Shown piece by piece: positions 1,232-61,180 of a stretch of 64,000 nucleotides of DNA. The DNA comes from Candidatus Woesearchaeota archaeon (GTDB lineage: Archaea; Nanobdellota; Nanobdellia; Pacearchaeales; GW2011-AR1), in contig CAZOCP010000003.1 of assembly GCA_964578345.1 (NCBI GenBank), positions 1,136 to 65,135 of the forward strand, given 5' to 3'. Below the pieces are notes generated by a model, which saw only the letters and a program-made list of their open reading frames with translations, had not been told where the DNA came from and ran no database searches. The translations under genes and the position numbers were made by a program. The first letter of the stretch is position 1, and each line of letters begins with the position of its first letter.

Positions 1232-1294
1232 AAAAACTTGAAACTAATAATCTATTTAAACCTTTTCTTTTTCTGCTCTTTCAAAAATGACAAA

Positions 1295-1428
1295 ATCGCC
1301 AAACTCTCTGTGTTTGTACCTAGCCTCCTCAAGAATCCTTGATTCTTGATAGCCATCAGAAACTCAAAGAGTTTCTCAGCCTCAAGAACTCTATGTTCTT
1401 GACGGCCGCAGTTTGTTCTTCTGTATCC
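1295..1428. repeat. Hairpin-module repeat, family 1, degraded copy. The ORF 1252..1458(-) lies inside it and is judged spurious
   Basis: Shares >100 nt with 7294-7462 and 57568-57800: atcgccaaac(c/t)ctctgtgtttgtacct.gcctcctcaagaatccttgattcttgatagccatcagaaactcaaagagtttctcagcctcaa. Confidence 0.75.
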
Positions 1429-1492
1429 ATTAACATCTTTTAGCAAAAACATAAACATAAAAATTTAATAAACCAAATTTCCTGATAAATCA

Positions 1493-4271: not shown

Positions 4272-4295
4272 TAAGAAAATTATATTTCACAGCCG

Positions 4296-4420
4296 TCACA
4301 AAACCCTTCGGGTTTTAACCCCGCACTTTAGTGCGGGGCTTGTTCGTGGTTTTGTGACCGCCGGAGAAATCCTCACAAACAACCCCAGACTAAAGTCTAA
4401 GGATTTCTACGAGCGTTAAA
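4296..4420 (+). ncRNA. Candidate structured RNA/element (copy 1 of 2): UUCG-capped hairpin aaaaccc-ttcg-gggtttt, then ccccgcac-ttta-gtgcgggg, within a long closing helix gtcacaaaac...gttttgtgac
   Basis: Near-identical to 38648-38771. Between the copies the third hairpin carries paired substitutions (cctcggac/gtccgagg in copy 2). Intergenic location. Confidence 0.4.
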
Positions 4421-4441
4421 TAACCAAAATTAGAGAATAAT

Positions 4442-7293: not shown

Positions 7294-7462
7294 ATCGCCA
7301 AACCCTCTGTGTTTGTACCTCGCCTCCTCAAGAATCCTTGATTCTTGATAGCCATCAGAAACTCAAAGAGTTTCTCAGCCTCAAAAATCCATAAAAGATT
7401 TTTGACCCGCTCAGGAATCAAAGATTTCTGACGTAAAAGCCGAGTTTTGTTTTCTGTATCAA
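7294..7462. repeat. Hairpin-module repeat, family 1 copy B. The ORF 7227..7421(-) lies inside it and is judged spurious
   Basis: Modules caagaatc-ctt-gattcttg, gaaactc-aaa-gagtttc, caaaaatc-cataaaa-gatttttg, tcaggaatc-aaa-gatttctga. Confidence 0.75.
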
Positions 7463-7622: not shown

Positions 7623-7955
7623 ATGAGAGAAATACTGGATAATGCTCATGAATTTCTAGAATCTACAGAAGACAATATAAAAAAAGAAAGATGGAATGCC
7701 GCAGTCTCCGACTTCTTTAAAGCAATCGCTGCTTTCTGTGATTATCTGATATACAAAGAAATAAAAAGACTTCCTAAAAAGCATAGCGAACGTTTTAGTC
7801 TATTGGAAAAATATTTTAATAATGTCTACCAGAAAGTCACTGAATTATTCAAAAAATATAGAGAATCATATAATTTAAGACTCAAAAAGGAGGATGCTTT
7901 AAAATCGAGAGCATATGCATATGAACTCAGAGACTTTATTAAGAATAAAGAATAG
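7623..7955 (+). CDS. HEPN-domain protein (toxin-like partner of the adjacent nucleotidyltransferase)
   Basis: Helical protein with R-x4-H motif RLPKKH. Overlaps the downstream MNT gene by 41 nt. Confidence 0.5.
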   Translation: MREILDNAHEFLESTEDNIKKERWNAAVSDFFKAIAAFCDYLIYKEIKRLPKKHSERFSLLEKYFNNVYQKVTELFKKYRESYNLRLKKEDALKSRAYAYELRDFIKNKE

Positions 7956-8448
7956 ATTAAAAAAATTCCTAAAAGATAAAGAGATCTTAGATATTATATT
8001 ATTTGGTTCTGTAATTAAAGGCAAATATCTACCGAGAGATATAGATCTAGCTTTTATAGCTAATAAAGAAATTAAACCGGAAATAGAGGGATTTCATATA
8101 AGCTTAATTAAACCGGAAGAATTCTTTACTGACCAGCCTTCAATAACGAACACTGTATTGAGAGAAGGTTTTAGCTTGAGAAAAAATGCTTTTTTTGTTG
8201 AAGGACTAAAATTCAAAAATAGGGTGCTCTTTACTTATAAATTAAATGACAAGAGGTTATCAGAAAAAGTTAAAATAGTTAATATCTTGCGTGGAAAGAA
8301 TAAAGAAAAAGGAATTGTTGAAGAATATGGCGGAAGATGGCTGGTAAACCAGGCATTTACTGTCCCAATAACTACGGAGCACATAATTGAATCTCTGCTT
8401 ATAAATCTAAAAATAAAATACTCAAAATCATATATATTAATACATTAA
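7915..8448 (+). CDS. Minimal nucleotidyltransferase (MNT, Pol-beta superfamily)
   Basis: ILFGSVIKGKYLPRDIDLAF, the GS-x9-13-DxD NTase signature. Confidence 0.65.
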   Translation: MHMNSETLLRIKNRLKKFLKDKEILDIILFGSVIKGKYLPRDIDLAFIANKEIKPEIEGFHISLIKPEEFFTDQPSITNTVLREGFSLRKNAFFVEGLKFKNRVLFTYKLNDKRLSEKVKIVNILRGKNKEKGIVEEYGGRWLVNQAFTVPITTEHIIESLLINLKIKYSKSYILIH

Positions 8449-10254: not shown

Positions 10255-10399
10255 AAAATAAAGATAAAAATAGTATTGATAAACCTTTCTATACTTGAAT
10301 ACTAAATAAAAGTAATAAAAAATCTAAATATGTTCTGGTAAGCTGGCTTGTGGTTCTGGACTGCCAGAGCTATTTTAATATAGAGAAAATAGTTTATAA

Positions 10400-11212
10400 T
10401 TATTTCTTAAAAAAAATAGACCTTATCCCAGACTCATACTCATCTCTCGCTGCTTCTGAAACATATCTTCTTGAAAACTCTAGGACTTCTGCTAAAGATA
10501 GTGCAGAAATGCTAACTTCTGCTCCAGAAATTCTTTGCGAAGTGCCTTCAGCAGTTCTCAACACCCCATAAGCCGCCTCGTCTTTATCCAAGCCCAACCA
10601 ACCACAATGTAGAACACGATAATGGCCAAACCACAGGTAATTAAAAATTACTTGGCTATTTGAATCTTCGGGAAGATTCTCGAATTCTATTGTTCCTTTA
10701 GTGAATCTATCAAAGTAAGGCTTAGTTTGTTTAGTGAATTCATCAAAGTAAGGCTCAGTTTGCTTTCTAAAGATGAACTGAGATTCAGGCATTTCAGGAG
10801 TTAAAATAAAACATCCTCTTTGTGAAACAATAAGTGCACTTCTGTCTTCAGGAGCCATAGATTCTTGGCTTTTTGCAAGCGCTTCGGCTGCTTCATAAAC
10901 ATCTCTGTTTGTCTCAAAATGCCTTTTGCTTGCATAAGCTCTAACAGCAACAGGAGCCATTAAAGGATTCATCAAGATAGAGTCTCTAACTAAAATAGTT
11001 TTTTTGCCCTTTAGTGCGATAGGTGCCATGCTTGTTCTTGAGTAATCTTTAGAAACACCAGCTAATCGTATCTGAGCAACTTCATCAGGAGCAGCAAGTG
11101 TATGAATGCCTTTATCTGCAAAAGCTCGCAATTGCTTATCTAAAGGCGCAGCTACACGATAAATATCTCCCAAGCCTTCTACGGTTCCTATCTTTTGTGC
11201 TTCATATGTCAT
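10400..11212 (-). CDS. Conserved hypothetical protein, copy 1 of a three-member, compositionally GC-richer paralog family (see 32036..32824 and 60282..60950)
   Basis: N-terminal ~130 aa and last ~57 aa are near-identical to copy 2 at protein and DNA level (last ~170 nt identical). ~100 bp of upstream region is also conserved. Confidence 0.6.
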   Translation of the reverse strand: MTYEAQKIGTVEGLGDIYRVAAPLDKQLRAFADKGIHTLAAPDEVAQIRLAGVSKDYSRTSMAPIALKGKKTILVRDSILMNPLMAPVAVRAYASKRHFETNRDVYEAAEALAKSQESMAPEDRSALIVSQRGCFILTPEMPESQFIFRKQTEPYFDEFTKQTKPYFDRFTKGTIEFENLPEDSNSQVIFNYLWFGHYRVLHCGWLGLDKDEAAYGVLRTAEGTSQRISGAEVSISALSLAEVLEFSRRYVSEAARDEYESGIRSIFFKK

Positions 11213-11969: not shown

Positions 11970-12307
11970 GGCCTAATGGGCAAAACAAACTTTATATCTC
12001 TTTCTAAAAAAGATTTTTTTGATGTCAGAAATGCGGTACAAACCGCGGCTTTAGGGCACTGTATTCCTGAGTATCCCAACGTCCCAAACAAACCTCTGCT
12101 TTTAAGTAGAGTTATAACAAAAGGACTTTTTGATGCCAAAGAACTTGATGAAAAAAACACCTTTTAAGATGCGCTTATTTTTTTAATCATTAAAAACCCC
12201 AAAGTCGCTGAAAGCGAGACTATCTATTTTCCGAAGGAAAATCAAGCGCGCTTCCTCTGTGCAAAGAAGGTAACAACAATCACAATTGAGTTGAACTGCT
12301 AATTATC

Positions 12308-17339: not shown

Positions 17340-17530
17340 AAATCCTGAGTTGTCAAGAACCCACCACTAAAGTGGCGGGCGTGTTAGGGTTCTTGAGCAC
17401 ACGAGATTTGTGTTTGCTTACCCACGAACTGAAGTAGGGGGATTGCGCAAACACAAATGCTCGATGTTTCAAGTCAATTTCATTTAATCGTTCAGGTTAA
17501 GCGAAGTTTCAGCACAATAAATTTATTAAG
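17340..17530. repeat. GC-richer non-coding repeat unit (ctcgag/ttaatcgttcagg...aagcgaagttt family)
   Basis: Shares ttaatcgttcagg(t/c)taagcgaagttt(c/t)ag(c/g)cac with 18965-19005, and ctcgag-rich segments with 18920-18990 and 20740-20800. Confidence 0.5.
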
Positions 17531-22316: not shown

Positions 22317-22501
22317 ACTTAAATTCCATTATTAAAAGAATATACTAGAATAATCATAAACCATCATATTGCTCAACTTAATTTTAATCTTTAATAAACA
22401 TCATAAGTATAGAAAAAATCAGGCGATTTAATCTGACTATGTTCTCTAACCTTCTAGGAGTTATTATATAATCAGAACTATAACTACAATATCAAAAAAA
22501 C

Positions 22502-22888
22502 TTTGCGTTTTACCTCGGCTTTTAAGCCGAGGTTTGTTTGGTTTTTTGGATGCAGAAAAATCCCTGTGATTTTTCTGAACAGAGAATTTCTATCTGAAAT
22601 TCTCTTGTGCTCAAGAATTCATCTGCACACTGAAGTGTGCAGTTTTCTTCTAGAATTCTTGACATCAAAAAAACGATGTGCCACCTCGCCTTAAAAGGCG
22701 AGGTTTGTGATAGGCACTCGTTTCATCAAGGACGAAGTCCTTGAGTGTCATCGAGAATCGGAGATTCTCGAGATTTGGATGCTCAGGAATGCAGCGCCCT
22801 AAAGCCTCAAGAACGAAGTTCTTGATGGCCGTCAAGGATACTCAATCCTTGAGGGGCGCGGTTTTCACCGCATTCTTGACATAAAAAA
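22502..22888. repeat. Tandem pair of family-2 hairpin-module repeats (array of ~10 perfect short hairpins). The ORF 22503..22694 is judged spurious
   Basis: cctcggct-ttta-agccgagg, cagaaaaatc-cctgt-gatttttctg, agagaatttc-tatct-gaaattctct, tgcacact-gaa-gtgtgcag, cctcgcc-ttaaaa-ggcgagg, caaggac-gaa-gtccttg, tcgagaatc-gga-gattctcga, caagaac-gaa-gttcttg. Both units end in cttgacat(c/a)aaaaa. Confidence 0.8.
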
Positions 22889-32035: not shown

Positions 32036-32824
32036 ATGACATATGAAGCACAAAAGATAGGAACGGTAGAAGGCTTGGGAGATATTTACTATGTAGCTGC
32101 GCCTTTAGATGAGCAATTGCGAGCTTTTGCAGATAAAGGCATTCATACACTTGCTGCTCCTGATGAAGTTGCTCAAATATATTTAGCTGGTGTTTCTGAA
32201 GATTACTCAAGAACAAGCATGGTATTTATTGTACTAAAGGGCGGAAAAACTATTTTAGTTAGAGACTCTATTTTGATGGCTCCTTTAATGGCTTTTGCTG
32301 CTGTTAGAGATCATGCAAGTGGAAGGTATTTTGAGACAAGTAAGGGGGTTTATGAGGCAGCTGAAGCGCTCGCAAGAAGCCAAGAATCTATGGCTCCTGA
32401 AGACAGAAGCACACTTATTGTTTCACGAGAGGAAGATTTGACTTTAACTCCTGAAATGCCTGAATCTCAGTTCATCTTTAGAAAGCAAACTAAGCCTTAC
32501 TTTGATAAATTCAATAAAAAAGCAATAAATTTCTATAATCCTCACGGATATTCAAATAGTCGGGCAATTATTAATTACATGTGGTTTGGCTCTCCTCCGA
32601 ACAATCGTGATCTAGATTGTAGTCTCTTGGGCTTGGACAAAAAAAGAGCGGCTTATGGGGTGTTGAGAACTGCTGAAGGCACTTCGCAAAGAATTTCTGG
32701 AGCAGAAGTTAGCATTTCTGCACTATCTTTAGCAGAAGTCCTAGAGTTTTCAAGAAGATATGTTTCAGAAGCAGCGAGAGATGAGTATGAGTCTGGGATA
32801 AGGTCTATTTTTTTTAAGAAATAA
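32036..32824 (+). CDS. Conserved hypothetical protein, copy 2 of the three-member paralog family
   Basis: MTYEAQKIGTVEGLGDIY.VAAPLD.QLRAFADKGIHTLAAPDEVAQI... shared with copies 1 and 3. Its stop lies 11 nt from the cdc48 stop (convergent). Confidence 0.6.
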   Translation: MTYEAQKIGTVEGLGDIYYVAAPLDEQLRAFADKGIHTLAAPDEVAQIYLAGVSEDYSRTSMVFIVLKGGKTILVRDSILMAPLMAFAAVRDHASGRYFETSKGVYEAAEALARSQESMAPEDRSTLIVSREEDLTLTPEMPESQFIFRKQTKPYFDKFNKKAINFYNPHGYSNSRAIINYMWFGSPPNNRDLDCSLLGLDKKRAAYGVLRTAEGTSQRISGAEVSISALSLAEVLEFSRRYVSEAARDEYESGIRSIFFKK

Positions 32825-32835
32825 TTATAAACTAT

Positions 32836-35121
32836 TTACCCAGTATATAACGGCCCAACTTCTATCCCTGCCTTAGCACTCTTTAAATAATATTCCTCTA
32901 ATTTTTTATAGCGCTTTGCAGTATCCTGAGAAACTGAAGGTCTGACTTTATTCAAAGCCTCTTCAAAATCCTCCCTAGTTACTAATTTACTATCAACATC
33001 TTTTCTTAAGGCATGCATCCCAGATTCTAAAACAAGTCCTTCAATATCCGCTCCGACAAAACCCTCAGTCAATTTCACTAAATCCATGATAATAACATCC
33101 TTTGCAAGAGGAGTATTTTTCAGATGCACTTCAAAAATCTTCTTCCTGCTCTCAGCATCAGGTATATCCACTAAAATAATTCTATCAAACCTCCCTGGAC
33201 GCAAAAGAGCAGGATCCAACATATCCGGCCTGTTTGTGGCGCCAATAATAGTCACATCTTTAAGCCCTTCAAGGCCGTCTAATTCTGCTAGCAGCTGATT
33301 TAGAACCCTATCACTAACCTTATTCCCCTGGTCATACCCTCTTCTTCCTGCAAGAGCATCAATCTCATCAAAGAAAATTACGCAGGGAGAAACTTGTCTT
33401 GCTCTTTCAAAAATTTTGCGCACTCCCTCTTCTGATTTTCCAACCCACATACTTAACAAAGAAGGGCCCTTAACATGAATAAAATTAGATTCACTCTCCT
33501 TAGCAACTGCCTTTGCAAGCATTGTCTTTCCAGTCCCCGGCGGCCCATATAACAGAATTCCTCTAGGGGCCCTAATACCCAGCCTCTTAAAACTTTCCGG
33601 ATGTTTCAAAGGCCACTCAATAGCCTCCTTTAATCTTTGTTTAGTCTGCTCCAATCCTCCAATATCATTCCATCCTACATTCGGAGTCTCAACAAAAACC
33701 TCTCTCATTGCAGAAGGCCGAACCACTTTTAGAGCAGATTCAAAATCTTCAGAGATTACTATAATTTTATCCAAGACTTCTTTAGGGATAGCCTCACTTT
33801 CCTCTAACTTCAAACTCGGCAGTACTTTCCTAAGAACATTCATTGCAGCTTCTTTAGTAAGTGCCGACAAATCTGCTCCTACAAACCCATGTGTTTTCCC
33901 TGCAAGAAAATCAAGATGAACATCCTTAGCCAGAGGCATATTTCTTGTATGAATTTTAAGAATATTCAATCTCGCAGCTTTATCAGGAACACTTATCTCA
34001 ATCTCTCTATCAAATCTACCAGGTCTTCTCAAAGCAGGATCTAAAGAATTAACACGATTAGTTGCTGCAATAACAACAACTTTTCCTCTAGACTTAAGAC
34101 CGTCCATCATAGTCAGTAATTGGCTGACAACTCTGCGCTCTACTTCTCCCTGTACATCTTCTCTTTTAGGAGCTATTGCATCTATCTCATCGATAAATAT
34201 AATAGAAGGGGCATGCTTTTGTGCATCTTCAAAAATGTCCCTGATTTTTTTCTCTGACTCTCCATAAAACTTGCTCATGATTTCAGGTCCATTCAATAAA
34301 ATAAAATGTGCTTCTGATTCATTAGCAACTGCCTTTGCAAGAAGAGTCTTTCCGGTTCCTGGATGCCCGTGTAAAATAACACCTTTGGGAGCTTCGATAC
34401 CCAGCCTGTCAAATATTTCAGGATGTTTCAAAGGCAATTCAACCATCTCTCTAATTTTCTTAACTTCATCAACTAATCCTCCAATATCTTCATAAGTAAC
34501 ATCAGGAACAGTTTCCTCGTTTATGTCAACTGTTTTAGAATGTAAAGTCACCTCAGTATTTTCATTAATAATACAAGCTTGAGTAGGTTGTGTAGAAACA
34601 ACTACAAACTTCAAATGTTGAAAGCCGGCAAAACCAAAATTTGCTCCAAACAAATCATTCAAATCTCCAAAAATATCAGGCATTCCTTCAGCCATCAAAT
34701 CCCTTCTTCTCTGCACTCCTCCAAGCGAGATCAAATCGCCCTTCAGCACCGCTCTTCCAAGAAGCCCTTGCTTAAACATTTCAGGATCTCCATGAACCAT
34801 AATTCCTTGCTGGGCAGGAGCAATCGACACTTTAGTAGCGGGCCGCACATTTGCTTTAGATACAAGTACCTGCTCCCCAACCCCTGCTTTAGCATTTTTT
34901 CTTATTAAACCGTCAATACGAATAATTCCTTCACCTACATCTGCAGGATACGCCCTGTCAACAATAGCAACTGTCTCTCTCTGCCCCTTTATAGAAATAA
35001 TATCGCCTCTATTCAAATTCATCAACTTCATCAAATGAGGATCAATACGCGCAATTCCCTTATAAGCATCATCTTGTAATGCTTCTACAATTTTCAACTT
35101 AACTTCATCATTCGTCTTCAT
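32836..35121 (-). CDS. cdc48: Cdc48/VCP-like AAA+ ATPase (two AAA domains)
   Basis: N-domain, then Walker A GHPGTGKT and GPPGTGKT, two Walker B DEID motifs, SRH regions. Confidence 0.95.
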
Positions 35122-37155: not shown

Positions 37156-37815
37156 ATGATATTTAAAAAAAAATCTAAAAAAGAACAATTAAAATGTTAT
37201 TCATGTGATTCTGCAATCAATGAAAAGTATAGTTTCTGCCCTTGGTGCGGAAATCCTCAATTCGACCCGGAGCAGGAGTTGCGGGACTTCGGAATGCTTG
37301 GCAGAAGAGACACAACAGATGAAAACAAATTCAAACAGCAGTTTATATCATCAGATACGACAATAATGGAGAAAATGATAGGCTCTCTAATGAACAATTT
37401 CATAAAAAATATAGATAAACAATTCAGAGATATGGAAAAAACAAATATATCGCAGATGCCTAATAGTATTAAAATAAAAATTGGAATGTCTCCTCAGCAG
37501 ACAAAAAGAGGATCGCAGCAGTCAATACTACAAAGAAAAATAACAGAAGATCAGATGTCTAAAATGGAAGGTCTGCCTAGAACAACGGCAAAAACAAATA
37601 TTAAGAGATTAAGTGATAAAGTAATTTATGAACTGTTTACGCCAGGTATTATTTCTCCTCAAGATGTATTTGTTTCAAAGATAGAATCAGGATATGAAAT
37701 AAAAGCGATAGGAGAGAAAAAAGTATATGTTAATTCTCTTCCAATCAACCTTCCTCTGCATAGGTTCTCCATTGATAACGACAAGCTGATAATTGAATTC
37801 AAAACAGAAGAATAG
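37156..37815 (+). CDS. Zn-ribbon protein, hypothetical
   Basis: CYSCDS...CPWCGN N-terminal ribbon. C-terminal beta-rich domain has no clear family. Confidence 0.35.
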   Translation: MIFKKKSKKEQLKCYSCDSAINEKYSFCPWCGNPQFDPEQELRDFGMLGRRDTTDENKFKQQFISSDTTIMEKMIGSLMNNFIKNIDKQFRDMEKTNISQMPNSIKIKIGMSPQQTKRGSQQSILQRKITEDQMSKMEGLPRTTAKTNIKRLSDKVIYELFTPGIISPQDVFVSKIESGYEIKAIGEKKVYVNSLPINLPLHRFSIDNDKLIIEFKTEE

Positions 37816-37855
37816 TAAAAGATATATTGAGCATGCTCAAGTTCTTTGACATAAA

Positions 37856-37942
37856 TGATCCCGCCAAGAATTGAACTTGGGACCTCTGCCTTCCTGATAA
37901 ACATTATCAGAGCAGCGCTCTAACCAACTGAGCTACGGGATC
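37856..37942 (-). tRNA. tRNA-Ile (anticodon GAU) with 13-nt intron at 37/38
   Basis: Reverse complement: GATCCCG TA GCTC AGTTGGTTA GAGC G CTGCT CTGATA[ATGTTTATCAGGA]A GGCAG AGGTC CCAAG TTCAATT CTTGG CGGGATC A. Perfect 7-bp acceptor, T-loop TTCAATT, palindromic ctgataa/ttatcag (BHB-like). Confidence 0.8.
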
Positions 37943-38436: not shown

Positions 38437-38507
38437 GCGCCGTTAGTATAGTGGCAGTATTCAAGCTTCCCAAGCTTGCCGCGCGGGTTCGATTCCCGCA
38501 CGGCGCA
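38437..38507 (+). tRNA. tRNA-Gly (anticodon CCC)
   Basis: GCGCCGT...CAAGC TTCCCAA GCTTG ... GCGGG TTCGATT CCCGC ACGGCGC A. Perfect acceptor and anticodon stems. No encoded CCA. Confidence 0.8.
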
Positions 38508-38647
38508 TTGATAATTGTGCGGGAAGAATTCACTTTGTACTCGTCAGAGTCAAAAGTTCCCAAGGAGCTTGCTCTGCGTGGACCGCACGGCGCATGACTA
38601 AGGCGCATAGCTCAGAGCTTGGTTTGTATGAATCGCGCAGCGTATCT

Positions 38648-38771
38648 GTCACAAAACCCTTCGGGTTTAACCCCGCACTAAAGTATGGGGTTTGTTCGTG
38701 GTTTTGTGACCGCCGGAGAAATCCTCACAAACAACCTCGGACTAAAGTCCGAGGATTTCTACGAGCGTTAA
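38648..38771 (+). ncRNA. Candidate structured RNA/element, copy 2 of the ~125-nt UUCG-hairpin element. The ORF 38594..38800 is judged spurious
   Basis: Near-identical to 4296-4420. Copy-2-specific cctcggac-taaa-gtccgagg perfect hairpin. Confidence 0.4.
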
Positions 38772-38835
38772 AGAATAGAAACAATTACAATAGAATTTAA
38801 ATATACAACTCCCCTGATAAAAAAATGAGATTTAG

Positions 38836-40671: not shown

Positions 40672-40796
40672 GGCCTCGTAGCTCAGCCCGGTTAGAGTAC
40701 TTGGCTCTTACAAATAGAAAGTTTCTAGGAGCACTAGAAAACTGATTGAAGTTTGTAGAAACCAAGGTGTCGGGGGTTCAAATCCCCTCGAGGCCA
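40672..40796 (+). tRNA. tRNA-Lys (anticodon CUU) with ~50-nt intron at 37/38
   Basis: GGCCTCG TA GCTC AGCCCGGTTA GAGT A CTTGG CTCTTA[intron 40711-40760]A CCAAG GTGTC GGGGG TTCAAAT CCCCT CGAGGCC A. Confidence 0.75.
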
Positions 40797-41671: not shown

Positions 41672-42628
41672 CTAGTCTTTAAAATAATCATAGTTTAAGA
41701 AATACAATGTTTCTACCAACTCATTAAGTTCAACAAGAATAGAGTAGGTACTGTAAGAAATAATGCCCCTAACTTCGTGCTTCTTAATTTTTTCTTCATT
41801 ATCTTTTCTTAAACTATCCAGCTCATTTGTTAAAGACACAAACTTCTTTATATCAAATTTTCTATAAACGGAAATAAGCTCTTTTGTCAGATTTACAGAT
41901 TTTTCTAGAGATTTGAGAGTGTATTTATCAATTCTTTCTTTGTTCTTGGTAAAGTGAAGAGAAATCTCGAAAAACTTGTCTCCTAAAGATTCAAGTTTAA
42001 GAATCAAGTCATAATAAACCATAGTTTTCTTATCCGATTCAAAGCTAAATGAGGAAAGAATTCTAGTGCAGAAATCTGTTGTTTGAGTTATCAGCCTTTC
42101 TGTCAAAAGTGCTTCATCAAAGGAATCTTTATTTTGTGATAAGGATTCATAGACTTGTTCTGCTTGATGAATCAGATGCAAGCAAAGTTTGTTTAAGACA
42201 TTTGTAAACTCACCTGGATTGACTTTTGCGCTTTCCACTGAAAGAGCATAATTTTTTCCATCGTGCTTTCCTATTTCCCAAAATTGCATTCCTGTGAGGT
42301 GGTCAAATGTGTTTTTTATCATATCAATTTCTTTTACTAATCTTCCTCGCCTTTCAACCGTCTTATTTGGAGTGTAATAAGCTTTTATCTTCTTATAACC
42401 CATCTTATAAAGAATACCAATAACTTTAGTAGAAACAGGATGAAGAGAAGAAACATCAAGGCTTGCAGATTCTTCTTCAATTGTGTGCTTAGTAGAAATT
42501 CTGAGTGCATTCCCTTTTTGTTCAACATCTAATTCTTGGCCTTTTTCTAATCTGAATTTTTTTACCCAATCCATTGGGAGGGATATTGCCAATGTTACAG
42601 GTCCTGCCTGAAGTATCTTTCTATTCAT
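41672..42628 (-). CDS. AbrB/SpoVT-domain protein with helical C-terminal region (archaeal PhoU-like regulator possible)
   Basis: N-terminal AbrB-type swapped-hairpin motif LQAGPVTLAISLPMDWVKKFRLEKGQELDVEQKGNALRI. Confidence 0.4.
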   Translation of the reverse strand: MNRKILQAGPVTLAISLPMDWVKKFRLEKGQELDVEQKGNALRISTKHTIEEESASLDVSSLHPVSTKVIGILYKMGYKKIKAYYTPNKTVERRGRLVKEIDMIKNTFDHLTGMQFWEIGKHDGKNYALSVESAKVNPGEFTNVLNKLCLHLIHQAEQVYESLSQNKDSFDEALLTERLITQTTDFCTRILSSFSFESDKKTMVYYDLILKLESLGDKFFEISLHFTKNKERIDKYTLKSLEKSVNLTKELISVYRKFDIKKFVSLTNELDSLRKDNEEKIKKHEVRGIISYSTYSILVELNELVETLYFLNYDYFKD

Positions 42629-50090: not shown

Positions 50091-50528
50091 ATGCATTCCA
50101 TTTATATAAAAAGAGTCATGGAAGCAATACAATATTATAAAGAAAGAAGAGTAAAATTCTATTTCTGGGTGATGATATGTATAATACTCATCTGTCTAAT
50201 ATTAGTAATATCAATATTTATTCCGCAAAAAAAAGAAGGCAAAACAGATGAACAAATCACAACCCCTATAAAAAAAGAAGTTTCAATAGAACAAAAAGTT
50301 CTACTGTGCATAGAACAAGAGGATTTAGATGAAGAATGCATTAATCTATTCTATTCTCAAGATATAGAATCAGAATGCTTTAAACTCACTCAGCCTGCCA
50401 AAGACCTCTGTTTCTCCAGAATATCAGAAGTAAAAAACAGCTATCTTCCATGTAAAAATATCCAAAATGAAAGCTTTAGAAACGATTGTGAATTTAGCAT
50501 AATAGAAAAAATACCGCATGAAACTTAA
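50091..50528 (+). CDS. Membrane-anchored Cys-containing small protein, translationally coupled to the downstream large surface protein
   Basis: TM anchor FYFWVMICIILICLILVISIFI. Eight Cys in the ectodomain. Stop overlaps the next start. Confidence 0.4.
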   Translation: MHSIYIKRVMEAIQYYKERRVKFYFWVMICIILICLILVISIFIPQKKEGKTDEQITTPIKKEVSIEQKVLLCIEQEDLDEECINLFYSQDIESECFKLTQPAKDLCFSRISEVKNSYLPCKNIQNESFRNDCEFSIIEKIPHET

Positions 50529-53235
50529 AATCAAAAATAAATATATATTATCAGCGATCTGCTTAGGATTTATATTGTCAAATGTTTTTCTAGTTTCAGC
50601 AAATCAGGATAAAATTCTTATGAAAGAATGCAAATACAGTTTTAATGATGAAAATTTCAGATCCTGGAGTTCTCAAGATAACAAGGGAGTTTTCTTAAGC
50701 ATAACAAATAATAATCTAAATCATAAAGAAGAAGCAAATTATGTTTATACAAGCCAACAGCCGCCCAGAAACTACAAGACATATGATTATAACATAAAAC
50801 AGCAGATAGAAAGAGGAATATCAAAAATACCTGAATTAAAGGTCATAAATAATCAGCCAAACATAGTATATATTGAATGTCAATATCGTACTGAATCCTC
50901 TTTTCTAATGACTCTATTTTCCGCAGCCTGCGCTGAATGTGGAAATTCACCAGGTCTAAGATTAACGCACGATTTTGATTTAGCAGGACAAGTAAGAATA
51001 CAAGATTCATATGCAAGCAAATACATTTATAAAACTTCAGCAGAATATCAAAGCCCATACTCATACTATAATCAAAAACAGCAAGTCATTCCATTAGATG
51101 AAATCTATGAAGTTAATGGAATAGAAAAGAAAGGAATAGATTTCTTAAAGCAAACGCTTCCTAAAGATTCAGAAATCACTGTTAAATCAAAAATTGATAT
51201 ATCAAAACTTGCAAGTGGAATATTAGGAATTTCTAATTCCCATGCTGATAATGGAGGAGTTTCTTTAATATCAAATAGGCCCGGCTCATCTTTATGGACA
51301 GCATACATTTATATTAATTCAGAAAAAAATATTGAAGACATTCTTCTTCCAGATAAAAAAATAGTTTTATTTTCTAGAAAAAGAATAATAGAAGGAAGAG
51401 AAGACATAAAACAAAACTTCGGATGTCAGATAGGAACTTCACAATGTATAGATACCAAAATAGGAGACGAAATAAAAGCAGTTTACACTTATTATAACCC
51501 CTTCAATACCCAATTAACAAACATAAAAATTACGCATGTTTTTGCCTTTGATCCTTCAGGCACAGGCATAGCAGAATTAAGTATCGGCGAGCCAAAAGTC
51601 ATAAGATTCTTAAACAAAAAAGAATTTATAAATCTAATTTTCGCTCCTCAAGGAGAAATTAACTTAGAGCATTCAACAAAAATATCAGGATCGGTTTCTA
51701 ATCCTACAACAACCGATGACATATTATACGCACATAGAATCAGCTCGAATACTGCTATAGAAAGAGCAGAGGGTTTAAAAGTATTAGATTGGAAAGCCTT
51801 AGGCGGAGATGATAAAAGCTACTTCTATTTTGGAAAGCTAGAACTGGAGCCAGCTCTTAATTCTCTTAGAGCCCCAGTCATAAAAATAAAGGTAGAACTG
51901 CCAGTTTTAACAAATAGAGACAATAGTCAATCTATAAATGAAAATGAATTTGACATTGAAGTTGATATATATAAAAAAACAGGAAATAGAAGAGAACTAG
52001 AAATACAAGAGTTCATCCCTTTAAATGAAGAGTCTATTTTATATGATAATTTTCCTTTAAAGTCAAAAGACAAGCCAGCAACTTTCAGCTATGAACTGCC
52101 GATTGCAATACAAGCAGAAAATAACAATCAAAATGAAGAGTTTGAATATTCTGTAGAAATGTATAGTAGAAAGGCAATGAACAATGAACCATATGCAGGA
52201 AAAAGAATTGGAACGCTAACAACTAAACCTACAATTAATCCTGGAAAAATATTTTATGCTGATAATACAGTATTCGATTTGTATTATCGATATCCCTCAA
52301 AAATTAATGATTTAAGTTTGTTTAACCCGGATTTTTCGAAAAAGCACAATATAATTCTTAAAATAGCAAATATCAAATCAGAAAAAGATAAATTAGATAA
52401 ATTTAACATTGTAATAAAAGATAAAGATGGCAATGAAATCTTAAAAGAAAGACTTTCATCTGAATTAAACAATCGGGAAATATTTAATATAGTTCTAAGT
52501 CCATTAGAAGTCAAAGAACTAAAAATAGAAATAATACGTCTTCAAGATAAATGGCCTGCTGATGAAGATAAAGAAGTAACTTTTGATATATCTGCGGCAA
52601 TTGATCAAGAGCAAGAACCTAAATCAATTATAAATTTTAAAGTTATTGTCCATAAATTTGTACAATGTTCAGAGATAGAAGAAATAGATGCATCTAAAAG
52701 ACCAAATTCTTGTTTAAGGAATACATTAACATGTTATTGGAACTATGTACCAACAAGTTCTTCTATATACGAAACCTCTCCTCTTGGAAAGATAGAAGAT
52801 GGTGAATGCAGAGAATGCGAGGAATTAGAAGGCAACGGAAAATATTGCTCTAATTACAACAATGATTTGAGCTGTAATGAAGACCCATGTAATTTAGTTC
52901 CTGAAGGATATGAAAAATGTGAATGGAATAATGACCTATATAAATGCGTAGCCGTAAAAGCTCCATGCAAGTACTCAATCAGTAACACATGCACTTCACA
53001 GCAAAAACAAGGTATACTTACTTTCACTCCTATAAGCCAGACAGCAGACTGCAAGATAATAACAAAGCAAGTTCCATGTGCGGGCTATATCGAGCTTCCA
53101 TTTTTTTCAGAATTACAGATATTATTATCAATATTTCTAATCCTGCTTTTTTATTCAATTTTCTGCACTAAAAAGCAAAGCATTAAAAAAGCATATATCT
53201 CATCATCAAAAAGACGATGTGCCGCCACGGCTTAA
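50518..53235 (+). CDS. Large (905 aa) surface protein with signal peptide, Cys-rich C-terminal region and C-terminal TM anchor. 3' end runs into a hairpin repeat, so the true stop is uncertain
   Basis: Signal MKLKIKNKYILSAICLGFILSNVFLVSA. 24 Cys in the last ~200 aa. LQILLSIFLILLFYSIF anchor. Confidence 0.55.
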   Translation: MKLKIKNKYILSAICLGFILSNVFLVSANQDKILMKECKYSFNDENFRSWSSQDNKGVFLSITNNNLNHKEEANYVYTSQQPPRNYKTYDYNIKQQIERGISKIPELKVINNQPNIVYIECQYRTESSFLMTLFSAACAECGNSPGLRLTHDFDLAGQVRIQDSYASKYIYKTSAEYQSPYSYYNQKQQVIPLDEIYEVNGIEKKGIDFLKQTLPKDSEITVKSKIDISKLASGILGISNSHADNGGVSLISNRPGSSLWTAYIYINSEKNIEDILLPDKKIVLFSRKRIIEGREDIKQNFGCQIGTSQCIDTKIGDEIKAVYTYYNPFNTQLTNIKITHVFAFDPSGTGIAELSIGEPKVIRFLNKKEFINLIFAPQGEINLEHSTKISGSVSNPTTTDDILYAHRISSNTAIERAEGLKVLDWKALGGDDKSYFYFGKLELEPALNSLRAPVIKIKVELPVLTNRDNSQSINENEFDIEVDIYKKTGNRRELEIQEFIPLNEESILYDNFPLKSKDKPATFSYELPIAIQAENNNQNEEFEYSVEMYSRKAMNNEPYAGKRIGTLTTKPTINPGKIFYADNTVFDLYYRYPSKINDLSLFNPDFSKKHNIILKIANIKSEKDKLDKFNIVIKDKDGNEILKERLSSELNNREIFNIVLSPLEVKELKIEIIRLQDKWPADEDKEVTFDISAAIDQEQEPKSIINFKVIVHKFVQCSEIEEIDASKRPNSCLRNTLTCYWNYVPTSSSIYETSPLGKIEDGECRECEELEGNGKYCSNYNNDLSCNEDPCNLVPEGYEKCEWNNDLYKCVAVKAPCKYSISNTCTSQQKQGILTFTPISQTADCKIITKQVPCAGYIELPFFSELQILLSIFLILLFYSIFCTKKQSIKKAYISSSKRRCAATA

Positions 53236-53377
53236 AACGTCAGGAATCGAAGATTCCTGAGCGCATCAAAAATCCATAAAAGATTTTTGACGGCCGTGGT
53301 TTGAAAAGGCACTCGTGTTTTGGATGCTCAAGGAACAACTCCATCCTTTAGAAAGGAGTTGTTCCTTGACATAAAAA
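53212..53377. repeat. Family-2 hairpin-module repeat, nested form, ending 2 nt before tRNA-Arg
   Basis: ccacggc...gccgtgg encloses tcaggaatc-gaa-gattcctga and caaaaatc-cataaaa-gatttttg. A 15-bp stem caaggaacaactcc/ggagttgttccttg follows, then cttgacataaaaa. Confidence 0.75.
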
Positions 53378-53378
53378 T

Positions 53379-53450
53379 GGGCCCATAGTTTAGTGGATAG
53401 AATGACAGGCTTCGGACCTGTAGACCGGGGTTCAATTCCTCGTGGGCCTG
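53379..53450 (+). tRNA. tRNA-Arg (anticodon UCG)
   Basis: GGGCCCA TA GTTT AGTGGATAG AAT G ACAGG CTTCGGA CCTGT AGAC CGGGG TTCAATT CCTCG TGGGCCT G. Confidence 0.75.
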
Positions 53451-57534: not shown

Positions 57535-57567
57535 GATGCAACAAATAAATAAAGATTTATAAATACT

Positions 57568-57800
57568 ATCACCAAACCCTTCGGGTTTGTACTTCGCCTC
57601 CTCAAGAATCCTTGATTCTTAATGGCCATCAGAAACTCAAAGAGTTTCTCAGCCTCAAAAATCTTTTATGGATTTTTGACAACGCTCAGGAATCAAAGAT
57701 TCCTGACGTAAAAGCCGAGGTTTGCCTGGTGTTTGGCGAGACAGAAGAACAAACTACGCAAATACCTTTGCAGCTTAAAAGCCGCAGTTTGTTCTTCTGC
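57568..57800. repeat. Hairpin-module repeat, family 1, most intact copy (copy C)
   Basis: caaaccc-ttcg-ggtttg, caagaatc-ctt-gattctta, gaaactc-aaa-gagtttc, caaaaatc-ttttatg-gatttttg, tcaggaatc-aaa-gattcctga. Then a 14-bp stem cagaagaacaaact/agtttgttcttctg enclosing two inner hairpins. Confidence 0.8.
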
Positions 57801-57905
57801 ATCAAATAAACAAATATTAGCAATACCCTCTAGATAGTTTGTTATACCTAAAAAGAAGTTACAAGAGAAAGATTTATAAATCTAATTAACTCTTTTCCTA
57901 TTAAT

Positions 57906-60281: not shown

Positions 60282-60950
60282 ATGGAATCTGACTATGAAG
60301 CACTAAAGATAGGAACAGTAAAAGACTTGGGAGATATTTACCAAGTAACTGCGCCTTTAGATAAGCAATTGCGAGCTTTTGCAGATAAAGGCATTCACAC
60401 ACTTGCTGCTCCTGATGAAGTTGCTCAGATACATTTAGCTGGTGTTTCTGAAGATTCCTCAAGAACAAGAATGACATCTATCGTACTAAGGGGCGAAAAA
60501 ACTATTTTAGTTAGAGACTCTATTTCGATGAATCCTTTAATGGCTTCTGCTGCTGTTAGAGATCATGCAAGTGGAAGGTGTTTTGAGACAAGCAGAGATG
60601 TTTATGAAGAAGCCGAAGCACTTGCAAAAAGGCAAGAATCTATAGATCCTGAAGACAGAAGCGCACTTATTGTTTCACAAAGAGGAGGTTTTGTTTTAAC
60701 TCCTAAAATGCCTGAATCTCAGTTCATCTTAAGAAAGCAAACTGAGCCTTACTTTGATAAATTCACTAATGGAACAATGAAATTAGATAATCTTTTCAGA
60801 TATTCAGATAGAAAGGCAATTATTAATTACATGTGGTTTAAGAGAAATTGTAGTCTAGATTGTATTTGGTTGGGCTTGGACAAAGACCGTCCGGCTTATG
60901 GGGTGTTGAGAACTGCTGAAGGCAGCGCAAAAAATACAAGTGCTTCTTAA
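60282..60950 (+). CDS. Conserved hypothetical protein, copy 3 (shortest) of the three-member paralog family
   Basis: Shares KQLRAFADKGIHTLAAPDEVAQIHLAGVSED...ILVRDSI...PESQFI..KQTEPYFD with copies 1 and 2. C-terminus diverges after ...GVLRTAEG. Confidence 0.55.
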   Translation: MESDYEALKIGTVKDLGDIYQVTAPLDKQLRAFADKGIHTLAAPDEVAQIHLAGVSEDSSRTRMTSIVLRGEKTILVRDSISMNPLMASAAVRDHASGRCFETSRDVYEEAEALAKRQESIDPEDRSALIVSQRGGFVLTPKMPESQFILRKQTEPYFDKFTNGTMKLDNLFRYSDRKAIINYMWFKRNCSLDCIWLGLDKDRPAYGVLRTAEGSAKNTSAS

Positions 60951-61089
60951 TTATACAATTATATTCGAAGATTCAATCAAATTATTGAGAGATTAGGCGA
61001 GGTTAAAAAGATGTTAGAAGATATTATTGTTATGCAAAAGAAACCTTAATTAAATACAACATTTGTTTTATCATAAAGTCCTTTTGTTA

Positions 61090-61180
61090 TACCTCGGCTT
61101 TTAAGCCGAGGTTTGTTTGGGACTTTGGGATGCTCAGGAATGCAGCGCCCTAAAGGGCGCTGCATTCCTGACATGATAAA
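61090..61180. repeat. Family-2 hairpin-module repeat, compact ~90-bp unit
   Basis: cctcggct-ttta-agccgagg, then tttgtttgggactttgggatgctc, then caggaatgcagcgccc-taaa-gggcgctgcattcctg, then acatgataaa. Confidence 0.75.

Follow-up and report, generated by a model that had tools for sequence, protein, structure and literature searches.

The genomes of DPANN archaea are among the smallest and most compact of any cells. In bacteria, REPs and REPINs are mobilised by RAYT, a Y1 HUH transposase, and some REPs have been shown to stabilise mRNA 3' ends. The foot of the REP palindrome carries a conserved GTAG or CGTC tetranucleotide (PMC3733652). No IS family is more widespread in archaea than IS200/IS605 (PMC13343696), and the PATEs of Haloquadratum are non-autonomous derivatives of it (PMC3119063). 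Our literature search found no description in DPANN of elements comparable to those reported here.

We analysed a stretch of 64,000 nucleotides (the 64-kb window) from a DPANN archaeon that is Woese-/Pacearchaeota-like. The window's hairpin arrays are genuine members of a family of modular repeats with nested hairpins that seems not to have been described before. Perfect hairpins (stem of at least 8, loop of 3-8) were counted against dinucleotide shuffles as the null and are enriched, with 32 in the window versus 13.0 ± 3.8 in the shuffles; 17 have a stem of at least 9, versus 4.0. Twelve elements at 11 sites hold 24 of the 32 and have a footprint of 1,851 nt, equal to 2.9% of all window positions and to about 21% of the non-coding ones. 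Every site listed in the initial annotation has the hairpin arrays described there, and the list was incomplete, lacking 4295-4421, 38647-38781, 17345-17465 and a minus-strand tandem pair at 12017-12190. The elements are indeed GC-richer than their surroundings (0.35-0.50 vs ~0.33), and the ORF calls inside them are artefacts of repetition. Neighbouring genes include housekeeping genes (ProRS, AspRS, GatDE and MetAP). Elements were searched for in the window and in relatives' loci with a covariance model, R1. Weak model matches at 10373-10461 and 32764-32851 were rejected as 3' ends of paralogous ORFs. An Rfam 15 scan at the gathering threshold and at E <= 5 returned tRNAs only, with nothing credible on the elements, and viral contigs scanned for the A and C cores gave no match.

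The building block of the family is a three-part domain comprising an outer stem, an inner hairpin and a U-rich (T-rich in DNA) 3' internal loop. The outer stem reads AUCAAAAAGUCC/GGACUUUUGGAU or UCARRNNNN/NNNNYYUGA. The inner hairpin reads ACC-N5-6-C(U)UAAA(A)G-N5-6-GGU, in which the ACC…GGT foot is conserved and the A/T loop is CTTAAAAG or CTAAAG; an alignment of 27 copies gave (G)TTTTACC…GGTTTG as the consensus foot. A canonical element has two domains and spans about 120 nt, from ATCAAAAAGTCC… at the 5' end to …CTTGACATAA at the 3' end, and 3' ends are A-rich (CATAAAAA or CATAATAA). In variants, domains are concatenated, nested in loops or between domains, collapsed to bare TCA…TGA hairpins or internally deleted; truncated copies also exist. 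Within one element, inner hairpins and modules all lie in direct orientation on one strand. Judged by eye, one strand carries the A-rich loops in roughly 90% of copies, and a minority of copies have the loop orientation flipped (TTTTAA/TTAAAA, CATAAAA/TTTTATG). Three features that had been picked out from the sequence alone are real: modules shared between elements, a 'cttgacat(a)aaaa' end and an 'acgatgtgcc' start. The conserved 5' ATCAAAAAG… was rejected as a duplicated flank, being the 5' strand of a 12-bp closing stem in which it pairs with GGACTTTTGGAT. An apparent direct repeat of CATCAAAAA at both ends was likewise dismissed: one occurrence belongs to the 5' strand of P1, the other to the beginning of the following tandem unit. 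The elements of the window and their parts are:

22490-22670, plus strand: A1, first tandem unit of 22502-22888
A1, plus strand: closing stem P1, ATCAAAAAAAC…GTTTTTTGGAT
22512-22533: inner hairpin HP1 of A1, ACCTCGGC-TTTTAA-GCCGAGGT
22548-22553: junction GGATGC of A1
22553-22577 and 22581-22605: two collapsed hairpin modules of A1
22610-22620 paired with 22653-22662: outer stem of A1 domain 2
22623-22642: inner hairpin of A1 domain 2
22659-22665: end of A1, TTGACAT
22664-22888, plus strand: A2, second tandem unit, its start overlapping the final 'AT' of A1
22673-22682 (ACGATGTGCC) paired with 22713-22721 (GGCACTCGT): P1 of A2
22683-22704: HP1 of A2
22726-22744 and 22751-22771: two TCA…TGA modules between the domains of A2
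22777-22782: GGATGC of A2
22783-22792 paired with 22870-22879: outer stem of A2 domain 2
22793-22799 paired with 22853-22859: next stem in A2 domain 2
22800-22804: loop TAAAG of that next stem, with two inserted modules (22807-22825, 22832-22852)
22875-22888: terminal motif of A2, CTTGACATAAAAAA
41530-41597, plus strand: A3, short or truncated copy
A3 parts: 5' strand; HP1 ACCACATC-TTAAAA-GGTGTGGT; then directly …GCATCTTGACATAATAA
53207-53377, plus strand: A4, ending 1 nt before tRNA-Arg (53379-53450)
A4 HP1: closing stem GCCACGGC…GCCGTGG and a CTTAAAA loop with two inserted modules (53240-53260, 53266-53290)
A4 domain 2: 15-bp hairpin with apex TTTAGAAA (53347-53354), at -32 to -25 of tRNA-Arg
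61069-61179, plus strand: A5, simplest two-domain copy in the window
A5 parts: P1; HP1 at 61091-61112; GGATGC; 17-bp domain-2 hairpin at 61134-61171
12017-12190, minus strand: A6, two tandem units, one full (12017-12135) and one short (12136-12190)
1294-1430, plus strand: B1, 5' end ATCGCCAAAC…, 3' end resembling the second domain of B3
B1 ACCTAGCC stem: opens onto three modules (1329-1349, 1358-1376, 1382-1402)
7294-7462, plus strand: B2, closing stem CCTCGCC…GCCGAG around four TCA…TGA modules
57567-57805, plus strand: B3, four modules in domain 1 and a second domain
B3 second domain: 14-bp outer stem CAGAAGAACAAACT/AGTTTGTTCTTCTG
4295-4421, plus strand: C1, two-domain relative with P1 GTCACAAAACC/GGTTTTGTGAC
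C1 inner hairpin: ACCCCGCAC-TTTA-GTGCGGGG, then CTTGTT, then a second domain
38647-38781, plus strand: C2, 92% identical to C1, downstream of tRNA-Gly
17345-17465, plus strand: D, weaker relative with the same domain grammar
D parts: TCAAGAACCC…GGGTTCTTGA around CCAC-TAAA-GTGG, then a second domain

The reading of 22502-22888 as two tandem units was borne out, with folding z-scores of -8 to -10. A1 has an MFE of -67.8 kcal/mol (z = -8.1) and covariance-model matches of 70.7 and 48 bits, and A2 an MFE of -103.9 kcal/mol (z = -9.75). A5 has the same domain 2 as A2 without the inserts and is the top window match of model R1 (114 bits; folding z = -9.2). In the full unit of A6 (84.2 bits with the covariance model), a deletion relative to A2 takes out the 3' arm of the inner domain-2 stem. 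A3 scores 28.6 bits with R1 (E = 9.5e-5), and A4, whose HP1 loop contains the stop codon of ORF 50518-53235, folds with z = -9.8. B1 and B2 share 98% identity over 91 nt, and the 3' part of B1 is 100% identical to 57781-57799; B1 is a mosaic, since its 3' end matches the B3 second-domain type. B2 retains a TAAAAG loop remnant on its 3' side, and in B3 (folding z = -8.2) the loop of one module reads TTTTATG, the flipped form of the CATAAAA in B2. C1 scores 35 bits with the A model and is 89-96% identical to L009:2014-2184, in which the inner loop holds two inserted hairpins; C2 scores 50 bits (E = 7e-10) with the covariance model. D, which folds with z = -3.8 in sense and -5.8 in antisense, is assigned to the family tentatively.

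Covariance across copies, proposed earlier as a check on stem conservation, was found at 26 of 35 base pairs as double changes across 43 copies, with 96.7% of cells paired. Compensatory cells numbered 279, against 82 ± 8 in shuffles and at most 29 with the partners slid, and the observed values were reached in none of 500 shuffles. Pairing is 95.7% Watson-Crick, with G·U in 15 and A·C in 18 of 1438 cells (1.0% vs 1.25%), and z-scores are equal for sense and antisense folds. The constraint on pairing is strictly Watson-Crick and strand-symmetric. The upstream regions of 60 copies lack a position-specific TATA/BRE promoter signal. The suggestion that these are transcribed RNA hairpins thus found no positive evidence, given the lack of wobble tolerance, the equal folding of both strands and the lack of a fixed upstream promoter. 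These same features, together with copies in unrelated contexts and a domain in a tRNA intron, argue for DNA-level palindromes, and the behaviour of the family is closer to that of selfish palindromic DNA than to that of RNA genes. Some strand asymmetry does exist: there are conserved single-stranded segments, the 5' arms are rich in purines, and most loops have the A-rich orientation. An RNA function would explain this asymmetry equally well. The GAATC-N3-GATTC apex, described earlier as conserved, is not, as stems covary freely in homologues. Nor did paired GANTC methylation sites hold up: the window has 217 such sites where 234 ± 13 are expected, the motif is not conserved in homologues, and GANTC is incidental.

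Terminal inverted repeats (TIRs) are lacking: the 5' end ATCAAAAAGTCCTTG matches the reverse complement of the 3' end ATGTCAAGNNNCTTG at only ~8/15 positions and pairs with an internal segment instead. No direct repeat indicative of a target-site duplication (TSD) was found in the copies' flanks, including those of ~98%-identical copies in different contexts. With TIR and TSD both absent, the proposed modular MITE was discarded. TAA occupies positions -4 to -2 in 13 of 55 copies (24%), versus a background of 4.7% per position (p about 1e-6), and lies anywhere in the last 4 nt before the element in 35% of copies. The TAA flank is thus enriched but by no means invariant. Stop codons were rejected as its source, accounting for only 2 of 19 such TAAs. 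Hairpins are subterminal and on the same strand: ~22 nt separate the 5' end from the start of HP1, and ~22-25 nt lie between the last position of the domain-2 inner hairpin and the 3' end. An IS200 element of related DPANN-type contigs, outside the window's genome, has the same LE/RE hairpin geometry and had inserted after TAA in 7 of 9 contexts. Alignment of the LE/RE of this one IS lineage with the element ends scored no better than shuffles, and a covariance-model search found no element within 4 kb of DPANN IS200 tnpA at 16 loci. In a 1.2-kb contig (L163), an IS200-type tnpA adjoins an element-like domain; the 16 other tnpA loci are without one. No transposase, Y1 and RAYT genes included, was seen in the 71-kb contig, and no precise empty site was found between very close strains.

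Our best reading, to which we give about an even chance, is that the repeats are lineage-specific, non-coding, interspersed mosaic palindromic DNA of DPANN archaea of the Woese-/Pacearchaeota type, and that they represent REP/BIME- or PATE-like non-autonomous single-strand-DNA elements. A hairpin-recognising Y1/HUH transposase is the best mechanistic guess. It is hypothesized that the hairpins matter as single-stranded DNA and that a trans-acting HUH/Y1 transposase of IS200/IS605-RAYT type would recognise them, excise the top strand and insert it on the 3' side of a TAA-like target. Modules may be shuffled, and stems kept perfect, by recombination and template switching among the copies, and some copies may have been co-opted by exaptation, as with the A4 apex at the tRNA-Arg TATA position. 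The lack of TIR and TSD, the same-strand subterminal hairpins, the TAA flank and the shared orientation of neighbours are points for a Y1-type reading, whereas a TAA flank in only about a quarter to a third of copies and the lack of a transposase in the contig are points against it.

Homologues number in the dozens and come from Woesearchaeota MAGs as well as from metagenomes of freshwater sediment and groundwater. Multiplication and turnover of the family are evident from near-identical copies at unrelated loci, positions that differ between related genomes and a domain in a tRNA intron. Elements of L100/L194 and of L097/L115 are 98% identical in contig pairs otherwise without similarity, and element density is 5 in 455 kb of relatives' loci versus 12 in the 64-kb window. 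The tRNA-Arg-ProRS synteny is kept in relatives, with an element there only in the window; relatives lack one upstream of tRNA-Arg, where their promoter is of the ordinary TTTAAAAAAC type. The apex of the last A4 hairpin sits where the tRNA-Arg TATA box belongs, -32 to -25 being the TATA-box position in other tRNAs and in relatives' tRNA-Arg, and the copy appears to supply it. A tRNA with exons identical to window 37856-37942 carries domain 1 within a 79-nt intron; the intron of the window orthologue measures 13 nt and is without the domain. Residence in a tRNA intron fits an intron-encoded RNA too. Copies are placed between tandem, convergent and divergent gene pairs 25, 10 and 6 times, and many begin 0-36 nt past the end of the upstream ORF. 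Orientation relative to the upstream gene is the same in 30 and opposite in 19 (61% co-oriented), nine copies are antisense to both flanking genes, and adjacent elements agree in orientation 20:5. When 362 ORFs of 52 loci with elements were clustered all against all, no protein family recurred in more than 4 of the loci.

The initial annotation had proposed a REP/BIME architecture. This stands as a fair functional analogy for interspersed, mosaic, modular palindromes, because units are shuffled between elements, and it is not supported for REP/BIME proper. As with REPs, BIMEs and REPINs, these are high-copy intergenic palindromes in mosaic arrays, with covarying stems that keep a short foot motif, no TIR or TSD, a presumed role as single-strand DNA hairpin substrates and some copies co-opted as expression signals. 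In contrast to REPs, they occur in an archaeal (DPANN) host, their foot is ACC…GGT with neither GTAG nor CGTC in the 27-copy alignment, and their unit is a nested two-level domain rather than a 20-40-nt REP. The hairpins are direct, whereas the REPs of BIMEs and REPINs alternate or are inverted, and no repeat-flanked RAYT gene was seen in the 71-kb contig. IS200/IS605 elements and PATEs (PMC3119063) are similar in their same-strand subterminal hairpins near both ends, in lacking TIR and TSD, in the enrichment of a short target, TAA as in the DPANN IS200 examined here, within the 5' flank and in an orientation clustered along contigs. The present elements differ in that their sequences do not significantly resemble the ends of this IS200, that no tnpA/tnpB lies nearby and that only about 25-35% of copies have the target, and their extensive modular nesting is atypical of PATEs. 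BOX of Streptococcus pneumoniae, Correia/NEMIS of Neisseria and the Rickettsia palindromic elements (RPEs) are likewise modular (boxA-B-C-like) or palindromic repeats of small genomes, with variable module number, insertion in 'safe' places including RNA genes and occasional new expression signals. Their sequences are unrelated, the TIRs and TA duplications of Correia elements and MITEs are missing here, and RPEs often lie in-frame within genes whereas these elements are strictly non-coding or intronic. Integron attC sites also conserve structure over sequence in strictly Watson-Crick single-strand DNA hairpins of 60-140 nt; by inspection, however, RYYYAAC/GTTRRRY core sites are absent, and there are no cassette arrays, the elements being scattered among housekeeping genes. 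Several known motif classes were likewise rejected by inspection: H/ACA, since the ACA is paired and a two-sided variable pocket is missing; box C/D and K-turn, since a GA·AG motif is missing; and also CRISPR repeats, attC sites, dif-like recombinase sites and a BHB motif at the ends of elements.

Multi-copy structured small RNAs, with two domains and an RNA-level role such as binding or sequestering a protein, are a possible but doubtful alternative to single-strand-DNA elements. They would be released from read-through transcripts, tRNA introns or tRNA-end processing, with the hairpin expansions as tolerated decorations. The very strong covariation with conserved unpaired nucleotides, folding z-scores of -8 to -10, the largely uniform A-rich loop strand and the co-orientation of 61% of copies with the upstream gene fit this, as do the links to tRNAs: domain 1 lies within a tRNA intron, much as a box C/D RNA occurs in the tRNA-Trp intron, A4 adjoins tRNA-Arg, and the C2, L155 and L194 copies come after tRNAs. 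Yet wobble is not tolerated, the antisense strand is equally foldable, a TATA-like signal at a fixed upstream distance is absent, nine copies are antisense to both neighbours, presence among relatives is patchy, copies may be truncated, deleted or ~98% identical in unrelated contexts, and Rfam has no match even at E <= 5. We regard as rather doubtful a related reading in which the repeats are new abundant two-domain DPANN small RNAs, or else substrates of an unrecognised hairpin-specific DNA mobilisation system unlinked to a neighbouring transposase gene. In its small-RNA version, release would be from tRNA introns and tRNA-linked or read-through transcripts, and a conserved protein would recognise the conserved internal loops (UUGUUUGG, UUUUC) as well as the C(U)UAAA(A)G loops.

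Cis-acting elements retained by the host, whose repetition would reflect a repeated need for bidirectional terminators, mRNA 3'-end stabilisers, insulators or portable promoters, seem unlikely. The window elements are exclusively intergenic, many start just after an upstream ORF, hairpins and T-rich tracts lie on the sense strand with a T5 run (CTTTTTGAT) on the antisense, and the A4 apex is at the usual TATA position. Against this, placement among gene pairs resembles random intergenic placement, MetAP downstream of A2 has its own TATA-like box and therefore does not need A2 as a promoter, close relatives have the same sites without elements, and need hardly accounts for tandem and nested copies. 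SINE-like spread, in which a structured A-tailed transcript would be reverse-transcribed and integrated by a resident RT (DGR or group II intron), is very improbable. It would suit the A-rich 3' ends and the absence of both TIR and TSD, and DGRs are known in Woese-/Pacearchaeota (PMC5006420); however, no reverse transcriptase was found in the 71-kb contig, a promoter is neither carried nor found upstream, the wobble signature is absent, and the 3' tails, besides being short, are not poly-A. Chance palindromes or an assembly artefact, for which nothing but the AT-rich background speaks, are already refuted by hairpins 2.5-4 fold above shuffles and concentrated in 2.9% of the sequence, by the same loci in two independent assemblies and by homologues in many unrelated metagenomes.

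About a fifth of the non-coding DNA of a tiny, compact DPANN genome thus consists of proliferating nested-hairpin repeats, and the family is common to uncultured relatives from many environments. Since A4 apparently supplies a tRNA TATA box and another copy resides in a tRNA intron, the family bears on the evolution of expression signals and introns in streamlined genomes. The covariance model and consensus allow its annotation and masking. If these are selfish single-strand-DNA elements, REP/REPIN-like biology reaches Archaea with a different, recursive architecture, and some assembly breaks in DPANN MAGs would be explained. Assemblies do break at elements, and in a second assembly of this genome contigs break at two of them.

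The elements of the window constitute a real, apparently undescribed and lineage-specific family of nested-hairpin mosaic repeats. Perfect hairpins with a stem of at least 8 and a loop of 3-8 numbered 32, compared with 13.0 ± 3.8 in dinucleotide shuffles of the window (17 versus 4.0 for stems of at least 9), and 24 of the 32 fell inside elements, bearing out the hairpin arrays described in the initial annotation. Together the elements take up 1,851 nt, equal to 2.9% of the window; of the non-coding DNA they make up ~21%. Two tandem units had been proposed in the flagged region and both were recovered as A1 and A2, while self-comparison and covariance model R1, built from family A copies, added sites that had been missed.

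Tandem units of the flagged region and additional sites
22490-22670, element A1, folding z = -8.1
22664-22888, element A2, folding z = -9.75
12017-12190, minus strand, two tandem units
4295-4421 and 38647-38781, copies of the related family C
17345-17465, a weaker relative

No Rfam family matched the elements, and the literature searched contained no account of comparable elements from DPANN. The window has a G+C content of ~33% and carries intron-containing tRNAs and archaeal genes (GatD/GatE, archaeal-type ProRS, family B DNA polymerase and CDC48). The identity of its ProRS to proteins of Candidatus Woesearchaeota/Pacearchaeota MAGs does not exceed 72%, which indicates that the host is a DPANN archaeon with no closely related species sequenced. 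A 71,290-bp ENA contig contains the window, and breaks in independent Logan contigs of this genome fall at two elements (window 22905 and 4356).

A metagenome scan using a pattern from the 5' half of the element listed at least 120 loci, ~50 of which held true family members. Alignment of 27 simple copies and a consensus fold defined a canonical element of ~120 nt with two similar domains.

Anatomy of the canonical element
Domain 1 closing stem, 12 bp: AUC-A-AAAAGUCC paired with GGACUUUU-G-GAU
Domain 1 5' internal loop: UUGNGUUUU
Domain 1 inner hairpin (HP1): ACC-N5-C-UUAAAA-G-N5-GGU
Domain 1 3' internal loop: UUGUUUG
Linker from domain 1 to domain 2: short, GC
Domain 2 outer stem: UCAAGNNNN/NNNNCUUGA
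Domain 2 inner hairpin: ACC…GGU type, with loop CUAAAG, CUGAAG or CUUAAAAG
Domain 2 3' loop: UUUUCNNCAA
Domain 2 tail: CAUAA

This anatomy accounts for the motifs with which units had been seen to begin and end. The TCA…TGA "hairpin modules" correspond in sequence to the outer stems of domains, with the interior missing. They are located between the two domains (L001, L114, L149, L165 and A2) or within the loop of an inner hairpin or stem (A4, A2, B1-B3 and a family C homologue in L009). Families B and C follow the grammar of family A, with family C scoring 50 bits under the A model, and the metagenomic copy L184 combines domain 1 of the A type with domain 2 of the B type. The elements are thus built in a recursive, mosaic way, as the initial annotation had supposed. 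Its claim of conserved GANTC apices did not hold: GANTC was not enriched (217 versus 234 ± 13) and the GAATC apex was not conserved among homologues.

Covariation was assessed in 43 copies aligned to the model (1438 cells, 35 pairs). Standard pairs made up 96.7% of cells, and 26 of the 35 pairs changed on both sides, yielding 279 compensatory cells compared with 82 ± 8 in shuffles and at most 29 with slid partners. The structure is real and maintained. A function at the RNA level is a less likely but still live alternative. Pairing is strictly Watson-Crick (95.7% of cells, with 15 G·U and 18 A·C), sense and antisense strands have equal folding z-scores, and hairpins that otherwise match now and then differ by a reverse-complemented loop (TTTTAA versus TTAAAA, CATAAAA versus TTTTATG), all unlike typical RNA. 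Two copies on contig L155 differ solely by one compensatory base pair and one loop base, and between the orthologous copies of L083 and L177, whose strains have diverged by ~6%, a single 8-bp stem shows three compensatory pair differences. Quasipalindrome correction, in which template switching or conversion within a strand keeps DNA palindromes perfect, is well established. We infer that Watson-Crick-only pairing, strand symmetry, flipped loops and compensatory differences are what would be expected of template-switched or converted DNA palindromes rather than of typical RNA.

No position-specific TATA/BRE signal was present in 60 regions upstream of elements, unlike the tRNAs of this genome, which have a clear box at -32..-24. 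The upstream gene shared the orientation of the element in 30 cases and opposed it in 19; elements lay between tandem, convergent and divergent gene pairs in 25, 10 and 6 cases, a distribution resembling random intergenic placement. Neighboring elements shared orientation 20:5, and no recurrent protein family was found beside them. The elements do not appear to be independent genes or to be bound to gene ends. B2 and A3 are adjoined by small ORFs (7623-8448 and 41672-42628) that resemble HEPN (a weak match) and MazE and may be toxin-antitoxin or defence genes of the same variable intergenic neighborhoods.

Turnover, like the family and its structure, is shown by these comparisons. Elements 98% identical occur on contigs with nothing else in common (L100/L194 and L097/L115), and 31 loci of relatives (455 kb) held five copies, only in L001, L037 and L040, compared with 12 in the 64-kb window. 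A metagenomic tRNA gene (L180:7108-7234, minus strand) has exons identical to those of window tRNA 37856-37942, yet its 79-nt intron is mostly one complete element domain 1, whereas the window intron is 13 nt. Truncation and internal deletion are common among the copies (A3, A6, L189 and L141). On the plus strand at ~37815-37855, a fragment, GCATGCTCAAGTTCTTTGACATAAA, sits immediately next to the minus-strand tRNA, at the 3' end of that gene; it resembles the A-element 3' end (GGATGCTCAAG…CTTGACATAA) and may be a remnant. The tRNA-Arg-ProRS neighborhood is kept in L001, L006, L008, L009 and L010, and the tRNA-abutting element, A4, occurs only in the window. A4 ends one base before tRNA-Arg, and its last-hairpin apex, TTTAGAAA (53347-53354), occupies -32..-25, where the other window tRNAs and relatives' tRNA-Arg genes have TTTATAAA- or TTTAAAAAAC-type boxes. 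From this position, the tRNA-Arg promoter appears to be supplied by, or embedded in, A4. ORF 50518-53235 (905 aa, no Pfam match) extends ~25 nt into A4 (53207-53235) and stops at the TAA of the HP1 loop, so that A4 supplies its last codons.

Absence of terminal inverted repeats and target-site duplications ruled out MITEs. The proposed REP/BIME architecture held as a functional analogy, REP/BIME/REPIN and IS200-derived PATE elements being the closest known systems in function, but the elements lack both the GTAG/CGTC tag and the alternating orientation of REP/BIME proper; they also have a distinct recursive two-domain architecture and an archaeal host. Two similar same-strand hairpins, each ~22 nt from one element end, match the geometry seen in IS200/IS605 ends and in the REP-type substrates on which Y1/HUH transposases act. 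TAA is enriched directly 5' of elements (13/55 at -4..-2 versus a 4.7% background, p ~1e-6), and stop codons account for only 2 of 19 TAAs so placed. Among archaeal IS families, IS200/IS605 is the most widespread (PMC13343696). On the short contig L163, an IS200-type tnpA adjoins an element-like domain; its protein has >1000 homologues, many annotated as Nanoarchaeota, Woesearchaeota or Pacearchaeota. Most of these homologues sit on very short contigs, suggesting that they fragment assemblies. One active ~620-nt DPANN IS200-type element (metagenomic/ENA contigs L219-L228, L163 and L208), encoding a 144-aa Y1 transposase, is identical in nine different contexts, inserted after TAA in 7/9. Its LE hairpin (CCCCGCAGC-TTG-CTGCGG) and RE hairpin lie ~18 and ~15 nt from the ends, with RE terminus …TTTCATT. 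Three results speak against a straightforward connection: the ends of this one IS showed no significant similarity to element ends, no elements lay near IS200 tnpA at 16 loci, and the 71-kb contig held no transposase. Most likely, we infer, the elements would be non-autonomous single-strand-DNA hairpin elements that a Y1-type enzyme mobilises in trans and whose copies recombine and switch templates with one another.

The window has another repeat family, this one protein-coding, made up of three paralogous ORFs (222-270 aa; 10400-11212, minus; 32036-32824 and 60282-60950, plus) without Pfam match and with 85-89% DNA identity over ~350-680 nt. The final 12 nt of tRNA-Gly (CCGCACGGCGCA, 38496-38507) recur 75 nt downstream (38583-38594) within a GC-rich stretch of ~140 nt (38508-38646) also holding a tRNA-like 5' fragment, GCGCATAGCTCAGAGCTTGGT; the stretch looks like an att-type integration remnant or a decayed tRNA duplicate. 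Two of the four window tRNAs have introns (13 nt and ~50 nt). ARAGORN called 37856-37942 tRNA-Tyr(ata); its loop, CUGAUAA, instead gives the anticodon as GAU (Ile), and the intron sits at the canonical 37/38 position. In Nanoarchaeum, which lacks RNase P, tRNA transcripts with no leader or almost none have been described. In all four tRNA genes (37856-37942, minus; 38437-38507, 40672-40796 and 53379-53450, plus), a TATA-like box begins 29-32 nt ahead of the mature 5' end, suggesting that these transcripts are also leaderless or nearly so.
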